A stretch of DNA of 64,000 bases from Candidatus Omnitrophota bacterium. GTDB taxonomy: Bacteria; Omnitrophota; Gorgyraeia; Gygaellales; Profunditerraquicolaceae. The first letter of the stretch is position 1, and each line of letters starts with the position of its first letter. This document shows positions 3,561-31,032 of the stretch, piece by piece. The stretch lies in the NCBI GenBank assembly GCA_041651035.1, contig JBAZKC010000001.1, positions 323,244 to 387,243 on the forward strand, read 5' to 3'. Under the pieces are notes generated by a model. The model ran no database searches, was not told the origin of the DNA, and worked only from the letters and a program-made list of their open reading frames with translations. Position numbers and translations under genes: made by a program.

Positions 3561-4775
3561 TCAACAGAGATGAACAATGTCTTCAGGATGATACAAGGAA
3601 AGAAACAATAACATATAATCTCTTAAATGGCGCGTAATCAAAAAATTGTTTTTTATATGCTCCCGCCCATTTTCTCCTAATTTCTTGGCGTACGCCGGGC
3701 TGCTTAAAAGTTGCTTTATGGAAAAACTGGCTCCTTCAACTGAATGGCAAAGCAAACCTGAATATTTATGCTTTATCTGCAACGGGATACCGCCGACATT
3801 GGATGCCACAACAGGCTTGCCCTTCCATAAAGCCTCTGCAACCGTTAAACCGAAACCCTCCCTAAGAGACTTTTGGACAATTACATCTGATGCCTTCTGC
3901 AACGCATTGACCTCTATATCGTTTTGGGCTAATAATAAAATGTGGATATCGGGGTCGCTCTTAGCTTTTTCTTTAACCTCGCTCAAAACCTTGAATCCTT
4001 CCGGGTCGTCCTCTGCGGTACCGCCGGCTAACACCAGCTGGCAATCAATATATTTCTTTACCTGCAAATACGCTTCAATAACACCCAACGGGTCTTTCAA
4101 ACGGTCAAAACGCGATACCTGCGTGATGATCGGTTTATCTTTCTTGATATCGTATTTCCTCAATACGGAATCAACCGTTTCCTGCGGCAACTCTTTGTTT
4201 TTATCGCTTAAGGGGTCAATGGAAGGAGAAATCAGAAATTGCCTGATAGGCAATTTCCGGGAAAAAACCGGGGCGGAGAATACCGCCGAATCATATTGAA
4301 CGATAAAATCCATAAGGAATCCCCAAACTCTTTCATTAGGATTAGACACGTCAACATGGCATCGCCAAAGCCATTTATTAGCGGCCTTCTTTTTTATCAG
4401 GGCTATCGGCTGCGGATCATGGACAAAAACTATATCCCCATAGATATTGACATTTTCAATATTCTCCCGGCTCGTTTCCATGAATATTTCAAAATCCCTC
4501 CGGGTGACCTCTTCCGTCCTGCCGTGCAAGGCGTTGTGGAACTTCTTTGTCACATTAAAAAATTGTTCCCCGCCCTTTATCACATCCCATTTAGTATCCA
4601 CCCCCAATTCTCTCAATAATGGGACCATGCGGTTTAATATCTCGGCGACTCCGCCGCCTACAGGAGTAGAATTTATATGCTGGATAGCCTTACCCTTTAA
4701 CCGCTCGCCGAGCAGGCTTAAATCATCAATAACAGCCTGTCCTACTAAGGAGGCATATTCTTCTATTTTTGCCAT
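3561..4775 (-). CDS. treT: Trehalose glycosyltransferring synthase TreT (GT4 family)
   Basis: Blocks match archaeal/bacterial TreT as recalled: HINSTPVGGGVAEIL, FFNVTKKFHNALHG, VHDPQPIALI...WLWRCHVD, SPSIDPLSDKN, KPIITQVSRFD, REGFGLTV...WKGKPV. Confidence 0.65.
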   Translation of the reverse strand: MAKIEEYASLVGQAVIDDLSLLGERLKGKAIQHINSTPVGGGVAEILNRMVPLLRELGVDTKWDVIKGGEQFFNVTKKFHNALHGRTEEVTRRDFEIFMETSRENIENVNIYGDIVFVHDPQPIALIKKKAANKWLWRCHVDVSNPNERVWGFLMDFIVQYDSAVFSAPVFSRKLPIRQFLISPSIDPLSDKNKELPQETVDSVLRKYDIKKDKPIITQVSRFDRLKDPLGVIEAYLQVKKYIDCQLVLAGGTAEDDPEGFKVLSEVKEKAKSDPDIHILLLAQNDIEVNALQKASDVIVQKSLREGFGLTVAEALWKGKPVVASNVGGIPLQIKHKYSGLLCHSVEGASFSIKQLLSSPAYAKKLGENGREHIKNNFLITRHLRDYMLLFLSLYHPEDIVHLC

Positions 4776-5447
4776 TTAATCAGTTATCCTTCTTCCAACT
4801 ATTTGTATAATCTTATTTCTTAAATCCTCTAAGGTGCGGGTATAAGGATCAAAACCGGAAATCTCATCCGCTAACCCTTTATCGTCTAAAGAGTTCTCTA
4901 TCCAAAATGAAAAGTCATTAGTCGGCTTTTCCAGCCTTAAGCGCGCCTCAAAAATATGGAAATAAATAGAATCTATGGTTATTTTCTTTAAGACTTCCGT
5001 GAATTCTTTTAAATCATAAACAATATAATTTGTCGGCAGTATAAAACTGACCGATTTGATAAAATGGAATTCTTCCCCGGTCCTGGCAAATTTCAATTTA
5101 GCGAACGGGTTATCCTTCAGATAGTTCTCAATACTTGAAGCGATCTTCTCCCGCAAATCCCTGATGCTTGAGTATTGCATGGTATCAATGCTGGCCAACC
5201 TCTCCCCAAGCTCATCTTCACCGAGAATATCCGTTACCCAGTACGCGAAGTCGTTAGGAGGCTCAGGAGAAAGAAATTGGTGCTGTTGCAGGAATCTATG
5301 GGTATGGTGATAAATACAGGAGCCAGGCACTTCTTTAACAAGAACCAGTAACTGGCCTAAAGCGGTGGCCCGTAATCCGGTCAGCTCCGATAAATGTAAC
5401 CTGGTGCAAAACCTAAAAGGCTCTTTTGCTTTTATTAATCCTGACAT
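4776..5447 (-). CDS. Conserved hypothetical protein embedded in the trehalose operon
   Basis: 223-aa ORF whose ends are about 2 nt from otsB and treT. No recognisable catalytic motif. Confidence 0.4.
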   Translation of the reverse strand: MSGLIKAKEPFRFCTRLHLSELTGLRATALGQLLVLVKEVPGSCIYHHTHRFLQQHQFLSPEPPNDFAYWVTDILGEDELGERLASIDTMQYSSIRDLREKIASSIENYLKDNPFAKLKFARTGEEFHFIKSVSFILPTNYIVYDLKEFTEVLKKITIDSIYFHIFEARLRLEKPTNDFSFWIENSLDDKGLADEISGFDPYTRTLEDLRNKIIQIVGRRITD

Positions 5448-5449
5448 AA

Positions 5450-6247
5450 TTAGCTGGGCATGAGATCCAATATTAAACGTAGAAATTTAGTTACTTCTTT
5501 TGTATCCTTTAAGTAGTAATTGGCCTGAGAGCTACCTGGCTTTCCCACGAACACCGTCAACCCTTTATTTTTCAAGGCGCTAAAAGCATCTTCATCGGTT
5601 ATATCATCTCCGATATAAACCGGTAAGACATTCTTTTCTCCGGAAATAAATTGCTGCCTTGCGAAAAGCCACAAAACCACCCTGCCCTTGCCCCATTTAA
5701 CAGAAGGTCTTACCTCATAAACTTTTTTACCGGAATTAACCTTTATCTTGCCAGGCGCCGTATAAGGACCAGTGACTTCGGAAACAACCTTCTCCAGCGC
5801 GGGCATATCCCCTTTGTCAACCAGCCGGTAGTGGATACTCAAAGTCAAGCCCTTATCTTCAATTAAGGCGCCCTTGATGCCTGAAAGCCGCTTCCGCATA
5901 TCTTCGGCGACATTCCGCATAATTGATTTTGATCTCGCTGAAACCTGGCTTTCAAATTTCATCTTTGGGCTTTCAATTTCCAAACCGTGATTACCGGCAT
6001 AAATAATGCCCTCTATCCCCACGATGTTTTTTAAATCCTGTAAAGACCTGCCGCTGATAATACCCAATTTGCAATAAGGCTTGCTGGATAACTTCTGTAA
6101 TAATTCTTTTGCGCCCTTAGGGATAATTGCCTTCCTGGGGGTATCTACAATAGGGGCCAACGTCCCATCGTAATCAAGCAGAAGTAAAATAAATCTATTA
6201 CGCAATAGTTCTTTTATGTTATTAAATTGAGCGAATAAATAATCCAT
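5450..6247 (-). CDS. otsB: Trehalose-6-phosphate phosphatase OtsB (HAD family)
   Basis: HAD motif I LLLDYDGTL and motif IV YIGDDITDEDAF. 265 aa. Immediately downstream of otsA. Confidence 0.75.
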   Translation of the reverse strand: MDYLFAQFNNIKELLRNRFILLLLDYDGTLAPIVDTPRKAIIPKGAKELLQKLSSKPYCKLGIISGRSLQDLKNIVGIEGIIYAGNHGLEIESPKMKFESQVSARSKSIMRNVAEDMRKRLSGIKGALIEDKGLTLSIHYRLVDKGDMPALEKVVSEVTGPYTAPGKIKVNSGKKVYEVRPSVKWGKGRVVLWLFARQQFISGEKNVLPVYIGDDITDEDAFSALKNKGLTVFVGKPGSSQANYYLKDTKEVTKFLRLILDLMPS

Positions 6248-6249
6248 GC

Positions 6250-8487
6250 TTAAGCCTTTTTAAATGCCGTTAATTCCGTGATTATATTACCTGCCCAGCG
6301 GTAAATATTGTTTTCGGTTATCACCTTGCGCATGTTTTCCATGCGCCTCTGCTTCTCTTCTTTAGGCATCTGGATTGCCAGATTTATACTATCAGCAAAA
6401 TCTTCAATAGAATAAGGATTAATTAGAATAGCATCGCTGAGTTCACGCGCGGCCCCGGTAAACTGGCTTAAGATCAAACACCCCGATAAATCATCTTTCT
6501 CTGCCACATACTCTTTAGCCACCAGATTCATCCCATCATGCAGCGAACTAACAATACAAATATCACCCAGCTTATAATAAGGCTGAATATCGTCTTGCGA
6601 GAAATATTTCTTAAGATAAATTATTGGTTTCCAGTTCCCGTCTCTATATTTCCAGTTTATTTTCTCAACCAATTCATCAATTTCTCCTATTAAATCATGA
6701 TAACGCTTAATATGCGTGCGGCTCGGAGCGGCTAATTGAATAAAAACAAAATTCTTTTTATACGCGGGGTATTTATCCAGAAACCTATCTATCGCTAATA
6801 TTCTTTCAACTATGCCTTTAGTATAATCAATCCTGTCTACACCCATAGCAACAATCTTATTCTCAAGCTCAAATTCTTTCTTCAGCCTTTCCATCTGCCT
6901 TACCAGATTAACCTTAAGCGAACCGCCGCCTATGCGCGCGTTAATACTTATCGGGAAAGCCCTTATAAACGTCTCTTTCCCCGAACGAACAACACTGAAT
7001 CTTTCAGTGTCCACGCGTGACTCAAGCAGGCGGTTGGCGGTATCAAGAAAATTGTTGCAATGATTCTGGACATGGAAACCGATCAAATCACATCCCAGCA
7101 TTCCCTCCAGAATTTCGTTTTGATAAGGGCAAATCATAAAAGCCTCGGGCGTAGGCCAGGGTATGTGCCAAAATAAGGCTACTTTTGCATCCGGGCGTTT
7201 ATCTTTTATCATTTTTGGCAGAAGAGTAAAATGATAATCCTGCACAAATATAAACGGGCTGCTAGCCGGCAACTCTTCCAAAACACTATCAGCAAACTTC
7301 TGGTTTACTTCTTTATACATGCGCCAGTCAGATTCTCTGAAGACCGGACGTGTATGTGTGTTATGGCATAAGGGCCATAACCCTTCATTAGAAAAACCAT
7401 AATAATACCCTTGCTCCTCCTCTTTAGTAAGCCAAACTCTCTTAAGAATATAGCGGTTATCCTCAGGCGGCACCCCAAGCTTGTCTTTAGAATTGACGAA
7501 TTTCTTGTCGGAATTACCGCTTCCATGAGCAATCCAGGTCCCGCCGCAAGCAGAAAGTATGGGATGTATCGCGGTAACAACCCCGCTTGCCGGCCTTATA
7601 CACACTGCCTTACCTAAACTATCATCAAAAACATGCATATAAGGCTCTCTGTTAGAAACCACGAATAACGAATTATCTCCCAGCTTTGCGTGGATAAGAT
7701 CTTTAAGCTTGGCTTCAGTCCAAAGACCTTCTTTTTGCATCCGGGCATGCGCTTCATCTGATATGGTCCTGCGAGCTACCCTTATGCTTAAAGCAACCTG
7801 CTCAACTTCACTGATAAGTTTCCCAAATTCGCCTTTTTCTGCAAACGGGCGTAATTTGTCAGTTTCTCCTCTCTGAAAATGCGTAAACCACTGAGTCAAT
7901 CTGCGTACAGGGATGATAAAAATCTGCCTCTGGATCAATAAGGCAGTTAATACTATTAATAAAATAAGCGCTATGGAAGTAACGCTTATTTTTCTCCATA
8001 ATTCAGTTAAAGTAGCAAACATATAAGAAGTATCATAAATTACCTCTACCATGCCTAATACACTCTCATCATCATTTAAAACAGGCAAAATGTAACTATA
8101 CACGGAATATTCTTTAAATTTCTCCAAAACCCCGCGCGGATTCTTTGAAGACAGAATATCCTTAAGATATGGCCTTTCTCTATGTTTAAAATCAGAAAAT
8201 CGTTCAGTAATAGCTAATATTTGGCCGTCCTTATCGTAAATTACGCAACCCTGCAGCCTTTCTCTTTTCTGGAAACTATCAACTAAACGGTTAGCTTGTT
8301 TTAAATCATTGTTGATAAGGATGTACTTGGCGGATAACTCCAAACTCTCATCCACGGACCTGGCCTTCCTTTTTAAATCATCCATAAGCTTTTCTTCCGT
8401 GAAACGGGCCTGCATAATACCCGATATAGTAAATCCAAGCGCGACTAAGATTAATATAGGCAAAATAAACAGAAGTATTCTTTTCAT
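6250..8487 (-). CDS. otsA: Trehalose-6-phosphate synthase OtsA (GT20) fused to an N-terminal TM1 / periplasmic sensor / TM2 / HAMP module
   Basis: Residues ~1-250 hold two TM helices (ILLFILPILILVALGFTI and ISVTSIALILLIVLTALLI), a ~140-aa intervening domain and a HAMP-like segment (IPVRRLTQWFTHFQRGE...EFGKLISEVEQV). The GT20 core follows, with LFVVSNREP, FVQDYHFTLLP and ALFWHIPWP. Confidence 0.75.
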   Translation of the reverse strand: MKRILLFILPILILVALGFTISGIMQARFTEEKLMDDLKRKARSVDESLELSAKYILINNDLKQANRLVDSFQKRERLQGCVIYDKDGQILAITERFSDFKHRERPYLKDILSSKNPRGVLEKFKEYSVYSYILPVLNDDESVLGMVEVIYDTSYMFATLTELWRKISVTSIALILLIVLTALLIQRQIFIIPVRRLTQWFTHFQRGETDKLRPFAEKGEFGKLISEVEQVALSIRVARRTISDEAHARMQKEGLWTEAKLKDLIHAKLGDNSLFVVSNREPYMHVFDDSLGKAVCIRPASGVVTAIHPILSACGGTWIAHGSGNSDKKFVNSKDKLGVPPEDNRYILKRVWLTKEEEQGYYYGFSNEGLWPLCHNTHTRPVFRESDWRMYKEVNQKFADSVLEELPASSPFIFVQDYHFTLLPKMIKDKRPDAKVALFWHIPWPTPEAFMICPYQNEILEGMLGCDLIGFHVQNHCNNFLDTANRLLESRVDTERFSVVRSGKETFIRAFPISINARIGGGSLKVNLVRQMERLKKEFELENKIVAMGVDRIDYTKGIVERILAIDRFLDKYPAYKKNFVFIQLAAPSRTHIKRYHDLIGEIDELVEKINWKYRDGNWKPIIYLKKYFSQDDIQPYYKLGDICIVSSLHDGMNLVAKEYVAEKDDLSGCLILSQFTGAARELSDAILINPYSIEDFADSINLAIQMPKEEKQRRMENMRKVITENNIYRWAGNIITELTAFKKA

Positions 8488-8502
8488 TTAATTAGCCCCC
8501 CT

Positions 8503-8546
8503 AAAAACAAAAACCGCCCCCTGATTATTAAAATCAGATGGCGGCC
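8503..8546 (-). promoter_or_regulatory. Terminator-like hairpin plus U-tract inside the otsA 5' leader. Possible attenuator or riboswitch expression platform.
   Basis: Minus-strand RNA reads GGCCGCCAUCUGAU-uuuaaua-AUCAGGGGGCGG followed by UUUUUGUUUUU. This sits immediately 5' of the G-rich SD (AGGGGGG) and the AUG at 8487. There is no minus-strand gene upstream that it could terminate. Confidence 0.4.
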
Positions 8547-8644
8547 CGACCATCCAAAATCGCCTCCAGAGACATATATTTATCTCCAGACCACTTGATT
8601 TCTTATTTATGTTTATGCGCTTATTATACATCTTCCAGGGATTA

Positions 8645-8672
8645 TTACAACCATTTCATTCTCCCGTATAAT
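8645..8672 (+). promoter_or_regulatory. Sigma70-like promoter for the CDF transporter (TTACAA, 16-nt spacer, TATAAT)
   Basis: TTACAA at 8645-8650 and a perfect TATAAT at 8667-8672. It would give a ~150-nt leader containing a 9-bp hairpin (CGGCTTACG...CGTAAGCCG at ~8750-8783). Confidence 0.3.
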
Positions 8673-8829
8673 CTCAAGCATCCATCCTCCGGTTTTAAGG
8701 CCAGGGGGGTTACTGCGTTTCCCGTCTCGTAAGATATGCCTAAACGGCTTACGCTCACTGTCATTCCGTAAGCCGCGGGTTCATTAAAATAATTTGAACT
8801 ATAAATAAAAACGGGGTATAATTTATTTT

Positions 8830-9711
8830 ATGGATACCACTGATAGAGAACACTATAAAAGGATCAGGAAGATACTAATACTGATATTGATCCTGAATTG
8901 GGCGGTGGCCTTGGCTAAAATTATTTATGGAGCCTTGAGCCGCTGCGAAAGTATGTCAGCCGATGGATTCCATTCGCTGGCCGACGGCGCCTCCAATATA
9001 ATGGGCTTAATCGGCATACATTTCGCCTGCCAGCCTACGGATAAAGACCATCCCTATGGCCACAAAAAATATGAGACGCTTTTCTCCTTAGGCATAGCAG
9101 CCCTTCTATTTATTGTCGCTTTTAACCTCGCCAAAGAAGGCATAGAACACCTGCGACAACCCGCGATACCCAATATTGATATCAGAAGCTTTGTAGTAAT
9201 GCTCACTACACTGGCGATTAACCTTTGGGTAATGCGCTACGAACATAAACAAGGCAAGGCCTTAAAAAGCGACATACTTATATCGGATGCTATGCACACT
9301 AAGGCGGATATATTTATTTCGCTCTCAGTCATAACCGCCCTCATTGTGATAAAATTAGGCTACCCCATATTAGACCCCATTACCGCCATACTTGTTTCTT
9401 TATTTATCGCCCATACCGGATACGACATACTAAAAAGCAGTTCCGCGGTCCTCTGCGATACCGCGGCCATATTAGACGATAAGAGAATAACGGATATTGT
9501 TTTGGGGATCAAGGGGGTAAAAACCTGCCATAAGATAAGGTCACGCGGCAGGCTGGATGATATTCATGTGGATATGCACGTGCAGGTAAACGCGGACATG
9601 CACATAGACGACGCGCATAAAATAAGCTATAAAATCGAAGAGTCGATAAAAAAAGGCATCCCTGAAGTTAGCGACGTTATCGTACACATGGAGCCGAAAG
9701 AAAAGCGTTAG
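8830..9711 (+). CDS. Cation diffusion facilitator (CDF) family metal efflux transporter (CzcD/FieF-like)
   Basis: HSLADGASNIMGLIGIHFA (TM2 signature), HGHKKYETL, six TM helices and a C-terminal cytoplasmic domain. 293 aa. Confidence 0.7.
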   Translation: MDTTDREHYKRIRKILILILILNWAVALAKIIYGALSRCESMSADGFHSLADGASNIMGLIGIHFACQPTDKDHPYGHKKYETLFSLGIAALLFIVAFNLAKEGIEHLRQPAIPNIDIRSFVVMLTTLAINLWVMRYEHKQGKALKSDILISDAMHTKADIFISLSVITALIVIKLGYPILDPITAILVSLFIAHTGYDILKSSSAVLCDTAAILDDKRITDIVLGIKGVKTCHKIRSRGRLDDIHVDMHVQVNADMHIDDAHKISYKIEESIKKGIPEVSDVIVHMEPKEKR

Positions 9712-10850
9712 ATGCCTCTTAATATAAACCAGAGCCCGAAGCTGGAGAGTATCCCCATAAAGCCGCCGAAATAAAATGGCGCGGCCGGGCCAAAGTATTG
9801 CCAAAGCATCCCCGCCAATAGAGACGCCGGGAATAAACCAACGCCTACAAGCGCGGCATGCAGCCCTATCGTTGTTGCGCGCAGCTGGGATGGCGCGATA
9901 TCCGCTACCAATGCCTTTTCTACGCCGTCTGTAAATCCCATATACAGCCCGTAAATCCCGAATAAAAGCCAAAGTATGCCCGGGGAATTGTTTACTGCAA
10001 ACCCCAGATAAACCAGGCCATAAAATAAATAACCAAAGACCAGAAGATTCCTTCTGCCGATCTTATCCGAGAGGCGGGATGCCGGATAAGCAGCTAAACA
10101 ATAAACGATGTTATAAACCAGGTAAAAAAGAATAACCAGGGCAAGAGGGCTGCCCATATTCTTGGCGCGCAACAATAAAAATTGGTTGGAAGAATTACCC
10201 AGCGTAAAGATAAAAGTAAAAATAAGGAACAGTTTTAACTTTTTATCCAGGGCGTGCCACTTAAATTTCGGCCTTTCAACACCCGGTTTCAGCTCCCGCT
10301 TTTTTTCTTTTACTAAAAACAAGAATAACACGCCTAAGAACGCCGGTATTAAAGAAAACAGAAATACGCTTTTTATATTACCCCTATAATGCACAATTAA
10401 AAGATAGGAGATAAATACCCCCAAACTTGCCCCGAGGCTATCCATAGCCCTATGCAATCCAAACGCTGCCCCCCGCTTCCCTTCTTTAGCGCTGTCAATA
10501 ATCAGGGCATCCCTGGGGGCTGTACGTATGCCTTTGCCAAGCCGGTCAATCAAACGTCCGGCAAAAACATGCCCCCAGCCGGTAGATATATATATAAATA
10601 TTTTACCAAAAGCCGAACCGGCGTATCCTAATATAGTAAGGGGCTTTCTCGTTTTTGTCTTGTCAGAAGAATACCCCGAGAACACCTTAAGCATGCTTGC
10701 CAGGCTCTCAGCTATCCCTTCAATTAATCCCAGTATAGCGGGGCTGGCGCCAAGGGTAGTTACCAAAAAGACCGGCAAGAGCGGATAGATCATCTCGCTG
10801 GAAATATCGGTCAATAAACTGGTAATGCCTAATATGATAATGTTAAACAT
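9708..10850 (-). CDS. MFS transporter
   Basis: 380 aa with 12 predicted TM helices and an MFS-like N-terminus (ITSLLTDISSEMIYPLLPVFL). It is convergent with the CDF gene, overlapping by 4 nt. Confidence 0.55.
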   Translation of the reverse strand: MFNIIILGITSLLTDISSEMIYPLLPVFLVTTLGASPAILGLIEGIAESLASMLKVFSGYSSDKTKTRKPLTILGYAGSAFGKIFIYISTGWGHVFAGRLIDRLGKGIRTAPRDALIIDSAKEGKRGAAFGLHRAMDSLGASLGVFISYLLIVHYRGNIKSVFLFSLIPAFLGVLFLFLVKEKKRELKPGVERPKFKWHALDKKLKLFLIFTFIFTLGNSSNQFLLLRAKNMGSPLALVILFYLVYNIVYCLAAYPASRLSDKIGRRNLLVFGYLFYGLVYLGFAVNNSPGILWLLFGIYGLYMGFTDGVEKALVADIAPSQLRATTIGLHAALVGVGLFPASLLAGMLWQYFGPAAPFYFGGFMGILSSFGLWFILRGI

Positions 10851-10858
10851 GCCCTAAA

Positions 10859-11347
10859 CTACTCCAGGTATCCTAACGGATCTTGCGGGATGCCGTTATT
10901 CTTTACTTCAAAATGCAGGTGCGGTTGAATATCGCGAAGGTTGGCATTGCCGGTTTTACCTACATTCCCGATGATCTGGCCCTGCCTGAGGAATTGATTC
11001 TTGCTAACGCATATTTTAGAAAGATGCCCGTATATAGTAATGATACCGCCCGGATGTTTTATAATAACGTATTTGCCCATACCCCGGTTCTCTTCTACGG
11101 CAGCTACTATTCCTGAACGGCTGGCCAAAACCGGAGTGCCAACTGCCGCCAGAAGGTCTATGCCCCTATGCATTCTCCCGCCGTTACGCTTAGCGGCAAA
11201 GAAGCCGTCTCCGTAGTAATCATTACGTATAATAATACCCCTCTTATATTCTATGGGGGAGAGAAAATACTGTTTGTCTAAGAAATAAATACTTATTAAT
11301 AAGTAAACCGGCAGGATAATCAGTAAATATAATACTGTCTTCTTCAC
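10859..11347 (-). CDS. M23 family metallopeptidase (LytM-like) with N-terminal TM anchor
   Basis: HRGIDLLAAVGTPVLASRSG (HxxxD) and PHLHFEV (HxH) motifs. 162 aa. Confidence 0.7.
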   Translation of the reverse strand: MKKTVLYLLIILPVYLLISIYFLDKQYFLSPIEYKRGIIIRNDYYGDGFFAAKRNGGRMHRGIDLLAAVGTPVLASRSGIVAAVEENRGMGKYVIIKHPGGIITIYGHLSKICVSKNQFLRQGQIIGNVGKTGNANLRDIQPHLHFEVKNNGIPQDPLGYLE

Positions 11348-11391
11348 CCTTCAAGAGACCTCGCTTTCCAATTATAATATTTTCTAATGGC

Positions 11392-12945
11392 TTATCGCCT
11401 GTTTTTAAAAGTTTGTATTATACCATACAACAGGAATAAAAGACAAATAGCGGGGAAAAAATCTCCATAGCGGGTATAGATAGTAAGGGGCTTATTTAAA
11501 ACAGCAACCTCCCGCGTATTAATACCGCCTACAAATATATCCCCGCCAGATTTATCGCTAACTTTAGAAATGATCTTTCCGCCCGGGCCGATAAACCCTG
11601 ATATGCCGGTATTGGCGCAACGCACTAAGAATACGCGGTTCTCCACCGCCCTGAACACAGACGCCTGTAGATGCTGGCTTGAAGCGCTGGTCCTTTTATA
11701 CCAGGCATCATTAGTTATGTTCACTAAGAGGCCGGCTCCTCTTTTTATGAATTCTCTGGATATCTGCGGGAACAGATCTTCAAAACAAATCAAGACAGAA
11801 AACTTAAGCGGCAGAGGGCAAGAAACATCAGGCAGAGTAAATATTGTATAGTCCCTGCCCGGAGTTATGTCGCCGATAGGGACAACGGTCTCTAAGAAAG
11901 GCAGGGCTTTCTTTAGCGGTATATACTCGCCGAAGGGAACAAGATGCAGTTTATTATAGCGTCCGGATATTTCGCCTGAAGGCCCAAGCAATAACGCGCT
12001 GTTAAAATATCTTTCATTTTCCACCGCCACAACTCCTATAAGCAGAGGGACCCCTGTTTTCCTGCCTAAAGCGAAGATTTCCCCAGGAATTAAATCATCT
12101 TCGCCGAATATTCCCGGACTGGATGCTTCGGGCCAGACGATTAAATCCGGTTTTTCTTTACCGGCTTGTTCTGTAAATTTCGCGTATACGTCCAGTATGC
12201 CCGCCTTAGCATCGGGCGACCATTTTAATTCCTGCGGGATATTCCCCTGAACGACAGAAATCCGCACAGAATTCCGGGTATCTATTACAGGGGAATGGGA
12301 TAAACGAAAATAACCGTAAGATAAAACTAAAAACAAAGATAAAACCAGCAAAATGGAGACTTTTTTTAGCTTCGAACTTACTCCTTTTGCCTGCGACCAG
12401 ACCATCTCTACCACAGCCACATTTACCATCATCACCAAAAATGATACTCCCCAGGCACCTGTAATATCCGCTATCTGGATAACAGGCAGATTAAGGTATT
12501 GCGAATATCCTAAAAGCGCCCAAGGGAACCCCGTAAAAAGCAAGCCGCGTATATATTCTAGTAAAACCCATACGGAAGGAATAAATATTAACGAGTAAAG
12601 CGTGGATTTCTTAGTGGACGGCCGGATAACCAGGCCAAATACCGCGAAATACAGAGCCAAATACAAAACCAGCGCGATTGTCCCGGCTAAGGTAACATGT
12701 ATGAGCCAATAAATAATACCCGCCCAGAAGATTGCTCCGGTAACAAAAAATAATAAAAACGCCTGCCTGCCGGATTTATTATTAAGCGCAAAAAATACCG
12801 GCACAAACCCAAACCAGGCAAGAAATTCAAGATTGAAAGGGGGAAAGGACAGGATCAATAAGATTGCGGATAATAAACAAAGGAATAGTTCTTTTGCTAT
12901 TGGCCTCTGGCTTCTAATTATGGATTGGGCTACCTTCCGCAGCAT
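11392..12945 (-). CDS. lnt: Apolipoprotein N-acyltransferase Lnt
   Basis: Multi-TM N-terminal half plus a C-terminal CN-hydrolase domain ([30 protein letters not shown]). 517 aa. Overlaps the secA stop. Confidence 0.8.
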
Positions 12946-30806: not shown

Positions 30807-30882
30807 TGGTGGAGCTGGAGGGAGTTGAACCCTCGACCCCTTGCATGCCATGCAAGTGCTCTCCCAACTGAGCTACAGCCCC
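30807..30882 (-). tRNA. tRNA-Ala (anticodon GGC)
   Basis: Manual fold: acceptor GGGGCUG/CAGCUCC carrying the G3:U70 Ala identity pair. D arm GCUCAGUUGGGAGAGC. Anticodon stem CUUGC/GCAAG with loop AUGGCAU. T arm GAGGG-UUCAACU-CCCUC. CCA is encoded. 76 nt. Confidence 0.85.
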
Positions 30883-30946: not shown

Positions 30947-31032
30947 GCCGGAGTGGCGGAATGGCAGACGCGGCAGCCTCAAAAGCTGTTGAGGGCAACC
31001 TCATGGGGGTTCAAGTCCCTTCTCCGGCACCA
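30947..31032 (+). tRNA. tRNA-Leu (anticodon CAA), class II with a long variable arm
   Basis: Acceptor GCCGGAG/CUCCGGC. Anticodon stem GCAGC/GCUGU with loop CUCAAAA (U33, CAA, A37). Variable arm UGAGG-gcaa-CCUCA. T loop UUCAAGU. CCA is encoded. 86 nt. Confidence 0.8.

Follow-up and report, generated by a model that had tools for sequence, protein, structure and literature searches.

A transmembrane Cache–HAMP module fused to trehalose-6-phosphate synthase, encoded downstream of an nhaA-I-class riboswitch in Omnitrophota

The window analysed here is a 64,000-nt stretch of a Candidatus Omnitrophota contig. On its minus strand lies an operon of four genes, in the order sensor-OtsA, OtsB, an OrfY-like DUF5752 protein and TreT. 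The first gene, and the subject of this study, encodes a trehalose-6-phosphate (T6P) synthase joined to a putative transmembrane sensor. Its leader contains an aptamer and a terminator. In the 5ʹ-to-3ʹ direction of the minus strand, the features of the locus are:

8623..8650, minus strand: candidate sigma-70-like promoter TTGTAA-16-TATAAT, 5ʹ of the riboswitch (consensus scan, 10/12; such sites are no commoner than in shuffled sequence)
8536..8593, minus strand: nhaA-I class aptamer (Rfam RF03057; Li+-I / Na+-II family) in the 5ʹ leader (Rfam, 41.2 bits)
8503..8547, minus strand: intrinsic-terminator hairpin and U-tract, UUUUUGUUUUU, the expression platform (RNAfold MFE and centroid; z = -3.5 versus shuffles)
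8496..8501, minus strand: ribosome-binding site GGGGGG, 8 nt 5ʹ of the ATG at 8487 (direct sequence reading)
6250..8487, minus strand: sensor-OtsA coding sequence, 745 aa, the whole fusion (ORF, Pfam; AlphaFold2 mean pLDDT 84.8)
5450..6247, minus strand: OtsB, trehalose-6-phosphate phosphatase, 265 aa, 2 nt past the otsA stop (Pfam Trehalose_PPase, E 3e-49)
4776..5447, minus strand: DUF5752 / OrfY-like protein, 223 aa (Pfam DUF5752, E 2.4e-67; PDB 4cso, "ORFY protein, transcription factor", E 2.4e-19)
3561..4775, minus strand: TreT, trehalose glycosyltransferring synthase, 404 aa (Pfam TreT_GT1 and Glycos_transf_1; PDB 6zj4, E 5.5e-123, and 2x6q, E 3e-105)

The sensor-OtsA ORF starts with the ATG at 8487. 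From the N-terminus, the 745-residue protein consists of a transmembrane helix (TM1), an extracytoplasmic domain of ~135 residues, a second transmembrane helix (TM2), a divergent HAMP domain, a short helical extension and a complete GT20 domain. An earlier note on this DNA had read the protein as TM1, an extracytoplasmic domain, TM2, a HAMP-like linker and a complete OtsA, and this order is upheld by sequence, profile, predicted-structure and comparative evidence. The peptides it quoted are all present (LFVVSNREP at residues 274-282, FVQDYHFTLLP, FWHIPWP, IPVRRLTQWFTHFQRGE at 192-208 and EFGKLISEVEQV at 220-231). The parts of the protein map as follows:

8413..8478, minus strand: TM1, residues ~4-25, N-terminus (MKR) cytoplasmic (hydropathy peak 2.8; within the long model helix 2-59)
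8008..8412, minus strand: WalK-like single Cache/PAS-like domain, residues 26-160 (family profile versus PDB, Foldseek)
7927..7995, minus strand: TM2, residues ~165-187 (hydropathy peak 2.9; continuous model helix 154-205)
7768..7926, minus strand: divergent HAMP, residues 188-240, comprising AS1 with P193...G207, a 14-residue connector and AS2 with E227 (hhalign, PDB profile, model)
7723..7767, minus strand: helical extension of AS2 and a turn, residues 241-255, linking HAMP with the native OtsA N-terminus (model helix 220-250, loop 251-257)
6250..7722, minus strand: OtsA (GT20) catalytic domain, including its own N-terminal helix W256-A268 (Pfam GT20, PDB, intact motifs)

The Kyte-Doolittle hydropathy profile has exactly two peaks, at residues ~4-25 and ~165-187, and their cytoplasmic flanks are rich in K and R, which places ~135-140 residues outside the membrane. 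By this predicted topology the GT20 domain is on the cytoplasmic side, where UDP-glucose and G6P occur.

Could the fusion be an artefact of annotation or assembly, with a sensor fragment and otsA merged through a frameshift or in a chimeric contig? We give this explanation practically no credence, having found no point that supports it. Hundreds of independent assemblies, which represent different samples and phyla and include isolate genomes, contain this ORF uninterrupted. All 120 matches to a sequence pattern described below have the same distance between W256 and N279, and the pLDDT of the AlphaFold2 model is 81-87 across the junction between sensor and OtsA. In addition, a deposited Candidatus Omnitrophota contig of 646,801 bp encodes an identical protein. 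Two genes joined by a frameshift, which the earlier note had named as fatal to its reading, are not what the locus contains: the full-length ORF is continuous across many clusters and phyla, and the comparative data lead us to reject both frameshift and chimera.

The full-length fusion is kept in more than 240 clusters (90% identity), of which more than 120 are from Omnitrophota and more than 120 from Acidobacteriota; those from Omnitrophota are 75-100% identical to sensor-OtsA and all ~745 aa long. Relatives were also found with a degenerate DNA pattern, built by hand across the HAMP-OtsA junction. This pattern has 0 chance matches in shuffles of the window, and its matches are true GT20 genes in 120/120 cases. 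The whole sensor module is present in 89 of the 120 GTDB species-representative loci found with the pattern, in at least nine phyla, and the carriers include cultured Janthinobacterium and Noviherbaspirillum (Burkholderiales). Because the pattern itself imposes W256, T257, L261, V276 and NREPY.H, the invariance of these residues in alignment A6 is not independent evidence. Sensor-less forms account for 11/120 loci, and a single TM anchor or only a short N-terminus is found in Mesorhizobium L019, in Dechloromonas L056 and in L099. Hence, membrane attachment, or the lack of any N-terminal module, is compatible with function in this OtsA subfamily. Within Omnitrophota, identity is 71% for Cache, 80% for HAMP and 81% for GT20, values that support selection on the sensor module. 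Judged from these sequences, Cache-TM-HAMP-OtsA defines a large, multi-phylum family.

The extracytoplasmic domain is most like that of the WalK kinases. A family profile searched against PDB matched the extracellular domain of S. aureus WalK (5is1, E 2.2e-6), and Foldseek with the predicted domain matched the WalK extracellular domain 4ywz (E 3.7e-7, TM 0.72), followed by CitA, KinD, DctB and Tlp3. With the N-terminal model, Foldseek matched full-length WalK over 270 columns (E 7.8e-12), and the NCBIfam WalK N-terminus aligns with residues 3-245 of sensor-OtsA (E 1.8e-7). The family profile was needed for the PDB matches because a single-sequence phmmer search of PDB with the N-terminal 271 aa gave no meaningful match. 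For sensor-OtsA the Pfam scores lie under the gathering scores (sCache_3_2, 21.8-24.3 bits versus 28.4; dCache_1, 21.9 versus 45); sCache_3_2 matches 19/88 relatives at E<=0.01, and many close homologues carry PF02743 or PF17203 in precomputed Pfam annotation. In the predicted model the Cache domain fills the entire region between the TM helices, with a long N-terminal helix and then a PAS-like beta-sheet (helices 2-59 and 62-74; strands 78-85, 90-93, 118-124, 127-137 and 143-152; then a helix into TM2). Its conserved residues are F72, R75, G80, Y84, P135, G145 and D152. Kindred sensor modules sit on GGDEF cyclases (P0146 and P0149) and on the histidine kinase P0266, whose HAMP is recognised by Pfam. 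By all these comparisons, the sensor module is a homologue of genuine signalling inputs.

The HAMP domain has diverged far enough to escape Pfam in sensor-OtsA and in 84/88 relatives. Pfam HAMP (PF00672) gives no match at E<=1 with sensor-OtsA alone, and at E<=0.01 it matches 4/29 and 4/88 family members; one relative, P0231, scores above the gathering score (26.5 versus 25 bits). When the family segment was compared by hhalign with Pfam-positive kinase HAMPs plus Af1503, the two aligned over 53 gapless columns (96.7%, E 3.3e-10). The family profile matched the Af1503 HAMP, Tsr and NarQ in PDB at E 0.02-0.7, and the phmmer alignment with the kinase P0266 covers the HAMP of that kinase. The segment also has the layout of a HAMP domain: a helix-connector-helix of ~50 residues right after the last TM helix, with the Pro and Gly of AS1 and the hydrophobic heptads of AS2. 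In alignments A2 and A4, both made before the pattern search, E227 never varies and P193 and G207 hardly do. The AlphaFold2 model, which is of a monomer and so could not display a HAMP four-helix bundle, has a helix-loop-helix at 188-205 / 220-250. The HAMP-like linker of the earlier note therefore fails the single-sequence Pfam search and is borne out by family-level Pfam, hhalign, PDB profiles and the AlphaFold/Foldseek match to WalK. The more sensitive tests overturn the Pfam failure, and we regard the HAMP assignment as supported at the level of sequence and model.

Beyond AS2, A246 and R249 are nearly invariant in alignment A4, whose 54 sequences comprise only the Omnitrophota and Acidobacteriota clades and partial sequences. 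Helix 258-268 was considered as a "signalling helix" for HAMP output, and rejected because proteins of this OtsA subfamily natively begin with it, sensor-less relatives included. These relatives begin M-W-T at W256-T257, in agreement with the start of the OtsA part at ~residue 255 proposed in the earlier note.

Pfam GT20 (PF00982) covers residues 274-740 (E 7.5e-125; 417.8 bits versus 32.5; profile positions 3-472 of 473). The best PDB matches of this domain are all OtsA/Tps1, the first being M. thermoresistibile OtsA (5jij, E 2.8e-86); E. coli OtsA (1gz5) matches at E 1.3e-66. The motifs SNREP(278), SGVVTA(301), YYYGFSNEGLWP(361), QDYH(416), WHIPWP(440), VDRIDYTKG(550), APSR(587) and HDGMNLVAKE(650) are present, and the residues R280, G302, Y361-363/W371, D417-H419, H441, R552/K557, R590, D651 and E659 lie within conserved motifs. 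The catalytic and substrate residues of E. coli OtsA, as reportedly defined by Gibson and colleagues in 2002, are R9, G22, Y76, W85, D130, H154, R262, K267, R300, D361 and E369; equivalence to this numbering was set by motif and not by a computed structural alignment. From the intact motifs and the PDB matches to characterised OtsA enzymes we infer that the domain is a catalytically competent OtsA. It belongs to a subfamily with the signature SNREPY.H, which replaces SNRLP, and with an N-terminal W-T helix. The NCBIfam OtsA equivalogs score under their curated cutoffs (TIGR02400, 425.9 versus 564.85; PRK14501, 482.4 versus 634). Since the subfamily is divergent and falls below the equivalog cutoff, its function is assigned from the best PDB matches and from the adjacent OtsB.

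These same properties, the signature and the scores below cutoff, would also suit a GT20 enzyme with a product other than T6P, such as glucosylglycerol-phosphate or another GT20 product, or an enzyme whose T6P is an output signal and not a precursor of trehalose; the GgpS model, too, scores 317 bits. We consider this highly improbable. The OtsA models score 426-482 bits versus 317 for GgpS, and the best PDB matches point to OtsA/Tps1 without exception. Moreover, a T6P phosphatase above the equivalog cutoff is encoded 2 nt downstream (TIGR00685, 179.4 bits versus a cutoff of 68.05; PDB 5gvx, E 2e-37). The pairing with OtsB recurs in ~30/51 relatives (those with enough downstream sequence), and TreT is encoded in the same operon.

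In the leader, the nhaA-I match spans the full Rfam model (1-55 of 55) at 41.2 bits, above the gathering score of 37 (E 3.5e-7). Homologous aptamers lie 5ʹ of sensor-OtsA in L001/L002, L020, L053, L100, L085 and L111 (37.3-53 bits in relatives), and the pairing of aptamer and sensor-OtsA recurs in relatives from Omnitrophota and Elusimicrobiota. The 5ʹ arm of the terminator overlaps the loop and 3ʹ strand of stem P2, so that aptamer and terminator are mutually exclusive. A hairpin with a T-run follows the aptamer in 5/5 loci read past its 3ʹ end (the window, L001, L053, L111 and L100). In alignments A7 and A8 there are G-C, A-U and G-U exchanges in both stems while the loop GGUCGGGCCGCC is invariant; the sequences are few and the covariation is illustrative. 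The specificity position (GGUCGGGCC) is U, as in Li+-I, in an RNA that also has a terminator platform and a Na+-II-like 5ʹ signature. An engineered C54U RNA, a D. propionicus construct, answered to Li+, Na+ and NH4+ (PMC9646797). The same study counted otsA as an nhaA-I-associated gene in 16/944 representatives and suggested an osmotic role (PMC9646797). The aptamer described here shares the terminator platform of Na+-II, and its 5ʹ GGUC...GAGG matches the D. propionicus Na+-II representative. Its hosts differ, being Omnitrophota and Elusimicrobiota, while the published motif is from Proteobacteria, with terminator-bearing variants only in Deltaproteobacteria (PMC9646797).

The riboswitch and terminator in the leader support a salt or osmotic role for the operon. 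The guess in the earlier note that the signal is "possibly osmotic" thereby gains independent support, as it does from channel genes of the MscS type in the same operon or neighbourhood in relatives. In L053 the riboswitch is separated from sensor-otsA by MscS-like and HflKC-like genes. In L005, a gene like those for MS channels and one for a glycosyltransferase of the mannosylglycerate-synthase type are found upstream.

What is the function of a receptor module on a trehalose enzyme? We propose that sensor-OtsA is a receptor-type trehalose-6-phosphate synthase, in which the sensor regulates OtsA directly, and that the operon is additionally under the control of a riboswitch; we judge this reasonably probable. 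On this view the enzyme resides in the membrane, presumably as a dimer, and an envelope, osmotic or ionic cue would be perceived either by its WalK-like Cache domain or by the membrane segment. TM2 and the divergent HAMP would then pass the cue on to the cytoplasmic OtsA, at its N-terminal helix and N-lobe. T6P synthesis would be raised or lowered without a kinase or transcription factor, and OtsB would convert T6P to trehalose. TreT, with its OrfY-like partner, would provide a second trehalose route from the same operon, and the nhaA-I-class monovalent-cation riboswitch would switch the whole operon on by blocking the leader terminator. The architecture makes it plausible that an external or membrane signal controls T6P synthesis directly, with no kinase in between. 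Given a receptor front end that is encoded behind a Li+/Na+-type riboswitch, the enzyme may be switched directly by salt or by signals from the envelope. We put forward more tentatively a specific form of this proposal, in which a Cache-TM-HAMP receptor gates a GT-B glycosyltransferase and, in Omnitrophota and Elusimicrobiota, is layered under a hybrid Li+-I/Na+-II riboswitch. Such an arrangement would act as a two-tier osmo/salt circuit without a dedicated regulator protein, the RNA sensing cytoplasmic cations and the protein sensing the envelope or exterior.

The main rival to gating is a pure membrane tether. The module would then have degenerated from a sensor into an anchor that keeps OtsA at the inner membrane face and transmits no signal, possibly for local protection of the bilayer, for meeting partners (MscS/HflKC) or for channelling trehalose to export or lipid pathways. 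Such a role is consistent with the high divergence of HAMP, with the single TM anchor and missing periplasmic domain of L019 and L056, and with the function of sensor-less forms in the same OtsA subfamily. Nonetheless, a simple anchor needs neither a folded periplasmic domain of ~135 aa nor a HAMP, and both are kept in at least nine phyla. P193, G207, E227, G80, P135 and G145 are conserved, identity of the module within clades is near that of the enzyme, and the same module serves real kinases and cyclases. We therefore consider a tether unlikely and favour gating by the receptor.

Known OtsA/Tps1 enzymes are soluble, have no TM, Cache or HAMP, and are regulated transcriptionally or by metabolites. 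The canonical enzymes (E. coli 1gz5/1uqu; M. thermoresistibile 5jij) share with sensor-OtsA the GT-B domain of ~470 residues, the donor and acceptor motifs and the pairing with OtsB. In contrast, sensor-OtsA carries 255 N-terminal residues as a transmembrane receptor module and falls in a distinct subfamily. The input module of WalK (YycG) kinases is homologous and superimposable, with the same topology and order of parts (TM1, sCache/PAS, TM2, HAMP). The output differs, being PAS-DHp-CA kinase domains in WalK and a glycosyltransferase in sensor-OtsA; hence, sensor-OtsA involves neither phosphotransfer nor a response regulator, and the ligand and logic of WalK are not transferable. HisKA, HATPase and receiver domains are absent from sensor-OtsA and from the genes examined at 3561-12945.

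Classically, HAMP domains act on kinases, cyclases, chemoreceptors and phosphatases. The principle of sensor-OtsA, a transmembrane sensor fused straight to an enzyme with no kinase, is that of the mycobacterial receptor enzyme Rv3645, a HAMP-adenylyl cyclase, and of Cache-GGDEF cyclases, including P0146 and P0149, which are 31-33% identical to its sensor module. However, those enzymes make signalling nucleotides, whereas sensor-OtsA would catalyse a step of compatible-solute biosynthesis. This bears on the term "one-component" used in the earlier note, whose architecture stands. As in one-component systems, input and output are in one polypeptide without phosphotransfer domains, but the output is a biosynthetic GT20 enzyme and not a regulatory (usually DNA-binding) or signalling one. 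The label is thus loose, and "receptor-enzyme", as for HAMP-adenylyl cyclases, fits better.

To our knowledge, and in the descriptions we checked, every output of HAMP and extracytoplasmic Cache domains is a signalling one (a kinase, chemoreceptor, nucleotide cyclase or phosphatase). In the literature that we could search, no account of an OtsA fused to a sensor or a HAMP came up, and for Omnitrophota and trehalose there were only generic mentions of trehalose synthesis; the database label of the fusion is plain "trehalose-6-phosphate synthase". The fusion is apparently unstudied. If our proposal is correct, it adds a new output class to HAMP and Cache signalling, with control of compatible-solute synthesis that is free of kinase and transcription, and extends transmembrane signalling to direct metabolic control of a housekeeping biosynthetic enzyme. 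Cells would gain a fast post-translational path to trehalose under osmotic, desiccation or envelope stress, and HAMP-driven closure of the GT-B lobes would be a fresh structural question. Because some family members come from cultured Burkholderiales, the idea is directly testable. The proposal would also place the unexplained association of nhaA-I with otsA noted previously (PMC9646797) in a concrete physiological setting.

The downstream genes can be compared with the trehalose modules of Thermoproteus tenax. We found no paper in a literature search on DUF5752. The DUF5752-GT4 pair was considered as a counterpart of the TPS-activating GT of T. tenax; this was rejected, as the GT4 protein is a genuine TreT. 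In the TPSP-GT-MSC operon of T. tenax, TPS is fused to TPP and is controlled via a complex with a GT4 protein (PMC3634074). This operon and the TreT-OrfY system (4cso; 6zj4 / 2x6q) likewise combine trehalose enzymes with an OrfY-family protein and TreT. T. tenax is an archaeon and its system is without a membrane sensor, but it has a mechanosensitive-channel gene as a neighbour, as do relatives of sensor-OtsA, and it is a precedent for post-translational control of TPS by a partner.

The gene sensor-otsA joins a membrane sensor module to a GT20 OtsA domain:

6250-8487 (-): sensor-otsA CDS, one ORF of 745 aa with an ATG start

GGGGGG is located 8 nt before the ATG. All of the peptides cited in the earlier note are found in this ORF, and its claim of a complete GT20 domain is borne out by Pfam (residues 274-740, E 7.5e-125). 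Hydropathy agrees with the claimed order of TM1, extracytoplasmic domain and TM2, with exactly two peaks, at residues ~4-25 and ~165-187. Basic residues flank the membrane segments (MKR at the N-terminus, more after TM2), which predicts that residues 26-160 are outside and that residue 188 onward is cytoplasmic. An identical protein, encoded on a MAG contig of 646,801 bp from Candidatus Omnitrophota, is named “trehalose-6-phosphate synthase”. The best 120 cluster representatives for the window protein have 75-100% identity and lengths of 743-772 aa, save for ~8 partial sequences and a few that are slightly longer; another 120-plus clusters, from Acidobacteriota, have ~44% overall identity and lengths of 748-836 aa. 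The possibility that two separate genes were joined by a frameshift is contradicted by the recurrence of the full-length ORF across independent clusters and loci.

Databases hold hundreds of sensor-OtsA proteins, plainly named “trehalose-6-phosphate synthase”. A few JGI names are [quoted passage not shown], and others are [quoted passage not shown]. A full-text literature search found no published description of the fusion. Among solved structures, the GT20 domain comes closest to OtsA/Tps1 enzymes that have been characterised (5jij, E 2.8e-86; E. coli OtsA 1gz5, E 1.3e-66), and all of the catalytic and substrate-binding motifs are intact. The NCBIfam OtsA equivalogs are the top-scoring models, yet fall under their curated cutoffs, such that the probable assignment as a trehalose-6-phosphate (T6P) synthase rests on homologies and genomic context.

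What is the N-terminal module? The NCBIfam model of the WalK N-terminus matches residues 3-245 (E 1.8e-7), and a 29-sequence family profile matches the extracellular Cache/PAS domain of S. aureus WalK in the PDB (5is1, E 2.2e-6), with weaker matches to the Tsr TM2-HAMP, the Af1503 HAMP and NarQ (E 0.02-0.7). A structural model of the N-terminus alone first matches a model of full-length WalK (E 7.8e-12, 270 columns) and then the sensor domains of WalK, CitA, KinD and DctB. A phmmer search of 1.84 billion cluster representatives, with residues 1-271 as the query, returned 442 relatives, and most of those of sufficient length run on into GT20 at the identical junction. Those that do not are either histidine kinases whose HAMP Pfam recognises (P0266, P0258, P0211) or GGDEF cyclases (P0146, P0149), indicating that the input module is also used by bona fide signalling proteins.

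The claim of a HAMP linker fares less simply. In a single-sequence scan, Pfam HAMP has no match in the window protein, and it is found in only 4 of 88 relatives. However, one relative, P0231, exceeds the Pfam gathering score, and the PDB profile matches include HAMP domains. Moreover, hhalign of the family segment 186-242 with the Pfam-positive kinase HAMPs gave 96.7% probability over 53 gapless columns, in a register that aligns the Pro of the first HAMP helix (AS1), the Gly at its end, and the second helix (AS2). HAMP divergence favors the main rival explanation, namely that the N-terminal module is a tether or scaffold.

An AlphaFold2 model from a 54-sequence alignment (mean pLDDT 84.8) predicts the following elements:

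2-59: helix, TM1 and Cache N-helix
after helix 2-59: PAS-like sheet of five strands
154-205: helix via TM2 into AS1, then a 14-residue connector
220-250: helix, AS2 and its extension, then a turn
258-268: helix leading to beta-1 of the GT-B N-lobe

Sensor-less members of the OtsA subfamily (L009, L014, L105, L069 and others) start M-W-T where W256-T257 stands, which identifies helix 258-268 as the native N-terminal helix of the enzyme. The receptor appears to have been grafted onto this helix through a ~15-residue AS2 extension. The pLDDT of the junction region is 81-87 in the full-length model versus 61-64 in the isolated N-terminal model, consistent with packing of helix 258-268 against the GT20 domain. 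Sensor-less forms mostly cluster with one another, which may point to one ancient fusion and later, occasional sensor loss.

A degenerate DNA pattern spanning the HAMP-OtsA junction (W256-T257...L261...V276...NREPY.H285; one match in the window, none in 100 shuffles) was run over one genome per GTDB species, yielding at least 120 loci. All 120 loci listed have a GT20 gene; the complete N-terminal module is within the same ORF in 89, and the others are sensor-less (11), have different N-termini (6), or are truncated at the locus edge (14). The matches listed include 40 from Acidobacteriota and 12 from Burkholderiales/Rhodocyclales, along with Omnitrophota, Elusimicrobiota, Gemmatimonadota, Planctomycetota, Bacteroidota, Thermodesulfobacteriota and other “Deltaproteobacteria”, Gammaproteobacteria and Alphaproteobacteria. 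Among them, the isolates Janthinobacterium sp. GB4P2, Janthinobacterium sp. MDB2-8 and Noviherbaspirillum aridicola NCCP-691 have the complete module; the Caenimonas koreensis DSM 17982 locus is truncated on the 5ʹ side, and in Dechloromonas hankyongensis XY25 (L056) the N-terminus is short, with two TM segments only. Alternative N-termini in the same OtsA subfamily (L019, from Mesorhizobium sp. PUT5; L056; L099; L110) include one TM anchor plus a low-complexity linker, a pair of close TM helices without a periplasmic domain, and an unrelated extension of ~450 residues. Membrane attachment via the N-terminus takes several forms in this clade.

Relatives that have a single anchor or lack the module also favor a tether or scaffold. 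There is evidence that the sensor is functional: its conservation within Omnitrophota (71% identity for Cache, 80% for HAMP) nearly equals that of GT20 (81%), and closely related modules act as the input of kinases and cyclases. A receptor-enzyme is the best-supported reading, for which we infer both the stimulus and the coupling with its sign. A signal would be perceived by the periplasmic Cache domain or by the membrane-embedded part, and TM2 and HAMP would relay it to cytoplasmic OtsA at its N-lobe and N-terminal helix, modulating T6P synthesis; OtsB would finish trehalose synthesis. Separately, cytoplasmic cations would induce transcription of the operon through a riboswitch in its leader:

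8503-8593 (-): riboswitch and overlapping intrinsic terminator, sensor-otsA operon leader
8536-8593 (-): nhaA-I RNA aptamer, full model, Rfam 41.2 bits (gathering score 37)
8547-8503 (-): strong hairpin and UUUUUGUUUUU, the terminator after the aptamer

Aptamer stem P2 supplies its loop and 3ʹ strand as the 5ʹ arm of the terminator hairpin, making aptamer and terminator mutually exclusive; this predicted arrangement has an ON-switch layout. In Omnitrophota (L001/L002, L020, L053, L100) and Elusimicrobiota (L085, L111), sensor-otsA has an equivalent aptamer ahead of it; none was found at the Acidobacteriota or Proteobacteria loci scanned. A terminator hairpin and T-run follow each of the five aptamers read past the 3ʹ end (window, L001, L053, L111, L100). 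In L053 (616-6085), the riboswitch is separated from sensor-otsA by genes for HflK-like and HflC-like (SPFH) proteins and an MscS-type channel, the last ending 13 nt before sensor-otsA; this putative operon for envelope/osmotic stress would be induced by cations. In L100, the separating genes code for an OmpA/LysM protein and a peptidoglycan-binding protein.

nhaA-I RNAs are Li+ riboswitches, with rare terminator-bearing variants, Na+-II, that respond to Na+; otsA is among the associated genes in 16 of 944 representatives, and an osmotic role has been proposed (PMC9646797). Hence, the association with otsA is already published, unlike its link to a sensor-fused enzyme and its occurrence in Omnitrophota and Elusimicrobiota, two phyla beyond those from which the motif has been described. 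We aligned the window RNA with the constructs of that study. The otsA-associated RNAs share the 5ʹ signature of Na+-II RNAs (GGUC...GAGG) and, in the five checked, the terminator platform, but carry U at the specificity position, as Li+-I RNAs do; the window RNA pairs both sets of features. Since Li+, Na+ and NH4+ all elicited a response from a C54U mutant (PMC9646797), we infer only that the ligand is probably some monovalent cation.

Downstream of sensor-otsA, the operon continues:

first gene, 2 nt past the otsA stop (-): otsB, above its equivalog cutoff
after otsB (-): DUF5752 gene, matching T. tenax OrfY (4cso, E 2.4e-19)
after the DUF5752 gene (-): treT, matching PDB 6zj4 (E 5.5e-123)
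3561-5447 (-): DUF5752 and treT pair

OtsAB and a genuine TreT in one operon mean that two trehalose routes are encoded. DUF5752, of unknown function in Pfam, appears from sequence to be the T. tenax OrfY family; a literature search found no paper mentioning DUF5752. The four-gene order is repeated at loci of Omnitrophota (L001, L002) and Acidobacteriota (L003-L005) whose flanks are unrelated. Of 51 GTDB loci whose sequence extends far enough past otsA, ~30 have otsB downstream, 14 have both a DUF5752 and a TreT gene, and one more has TreT alone; the two genes adjoin in 14 of the 15 loci with either. Loci with the pair include L001, L003, L005, L009, L024, L042, L079, L091, L111 and L121, and the pair also adjoins sensor-less OtsA. 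In L005 (2927-4920; Acidobacteriota), genes for MGS_GT (mannosylglycerate-synthase type) and an MS-channel-like protein lie immediately upstream of sensor-otsA, a neighbourhood of compatible-solute and mechanosensitive genes.

Other features of the window are:

8538-8732 (+): 64-aa ORF, probably spurious, overlapping the riboswitch
8830-9711 (+): CDF-family cation efflux transporter, divergent from the riboswitch/otsA leader
9708-10850 (-): MFS transporter, convergent with the CDF gene, 4-nt overlap
10859-11347 (-): 162-aa ORF, Peptidase_M23-like by eye
11392-12945 (-): 517-aa ORF, apolipoprotein N-acyltransferase (Lnt)-like by eye
30810-30882 (-): tRNA gene, Rfam scan of the whole window
30947-31029 (+): tRNA gene, same scan, divergent from the preceding tRNA

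The two ORFs slightly past the MFS gene look envelope-related, if the likeness by eye holds. Just downstream of the trehalose cassette of L001, at 11321-11447 (+), an FMN riboswitch (99 bits) lies ahead of ribBA-ribH; ordinary in itself, it confirms that riboswitch control is in use in the Omnitrophota lineage.
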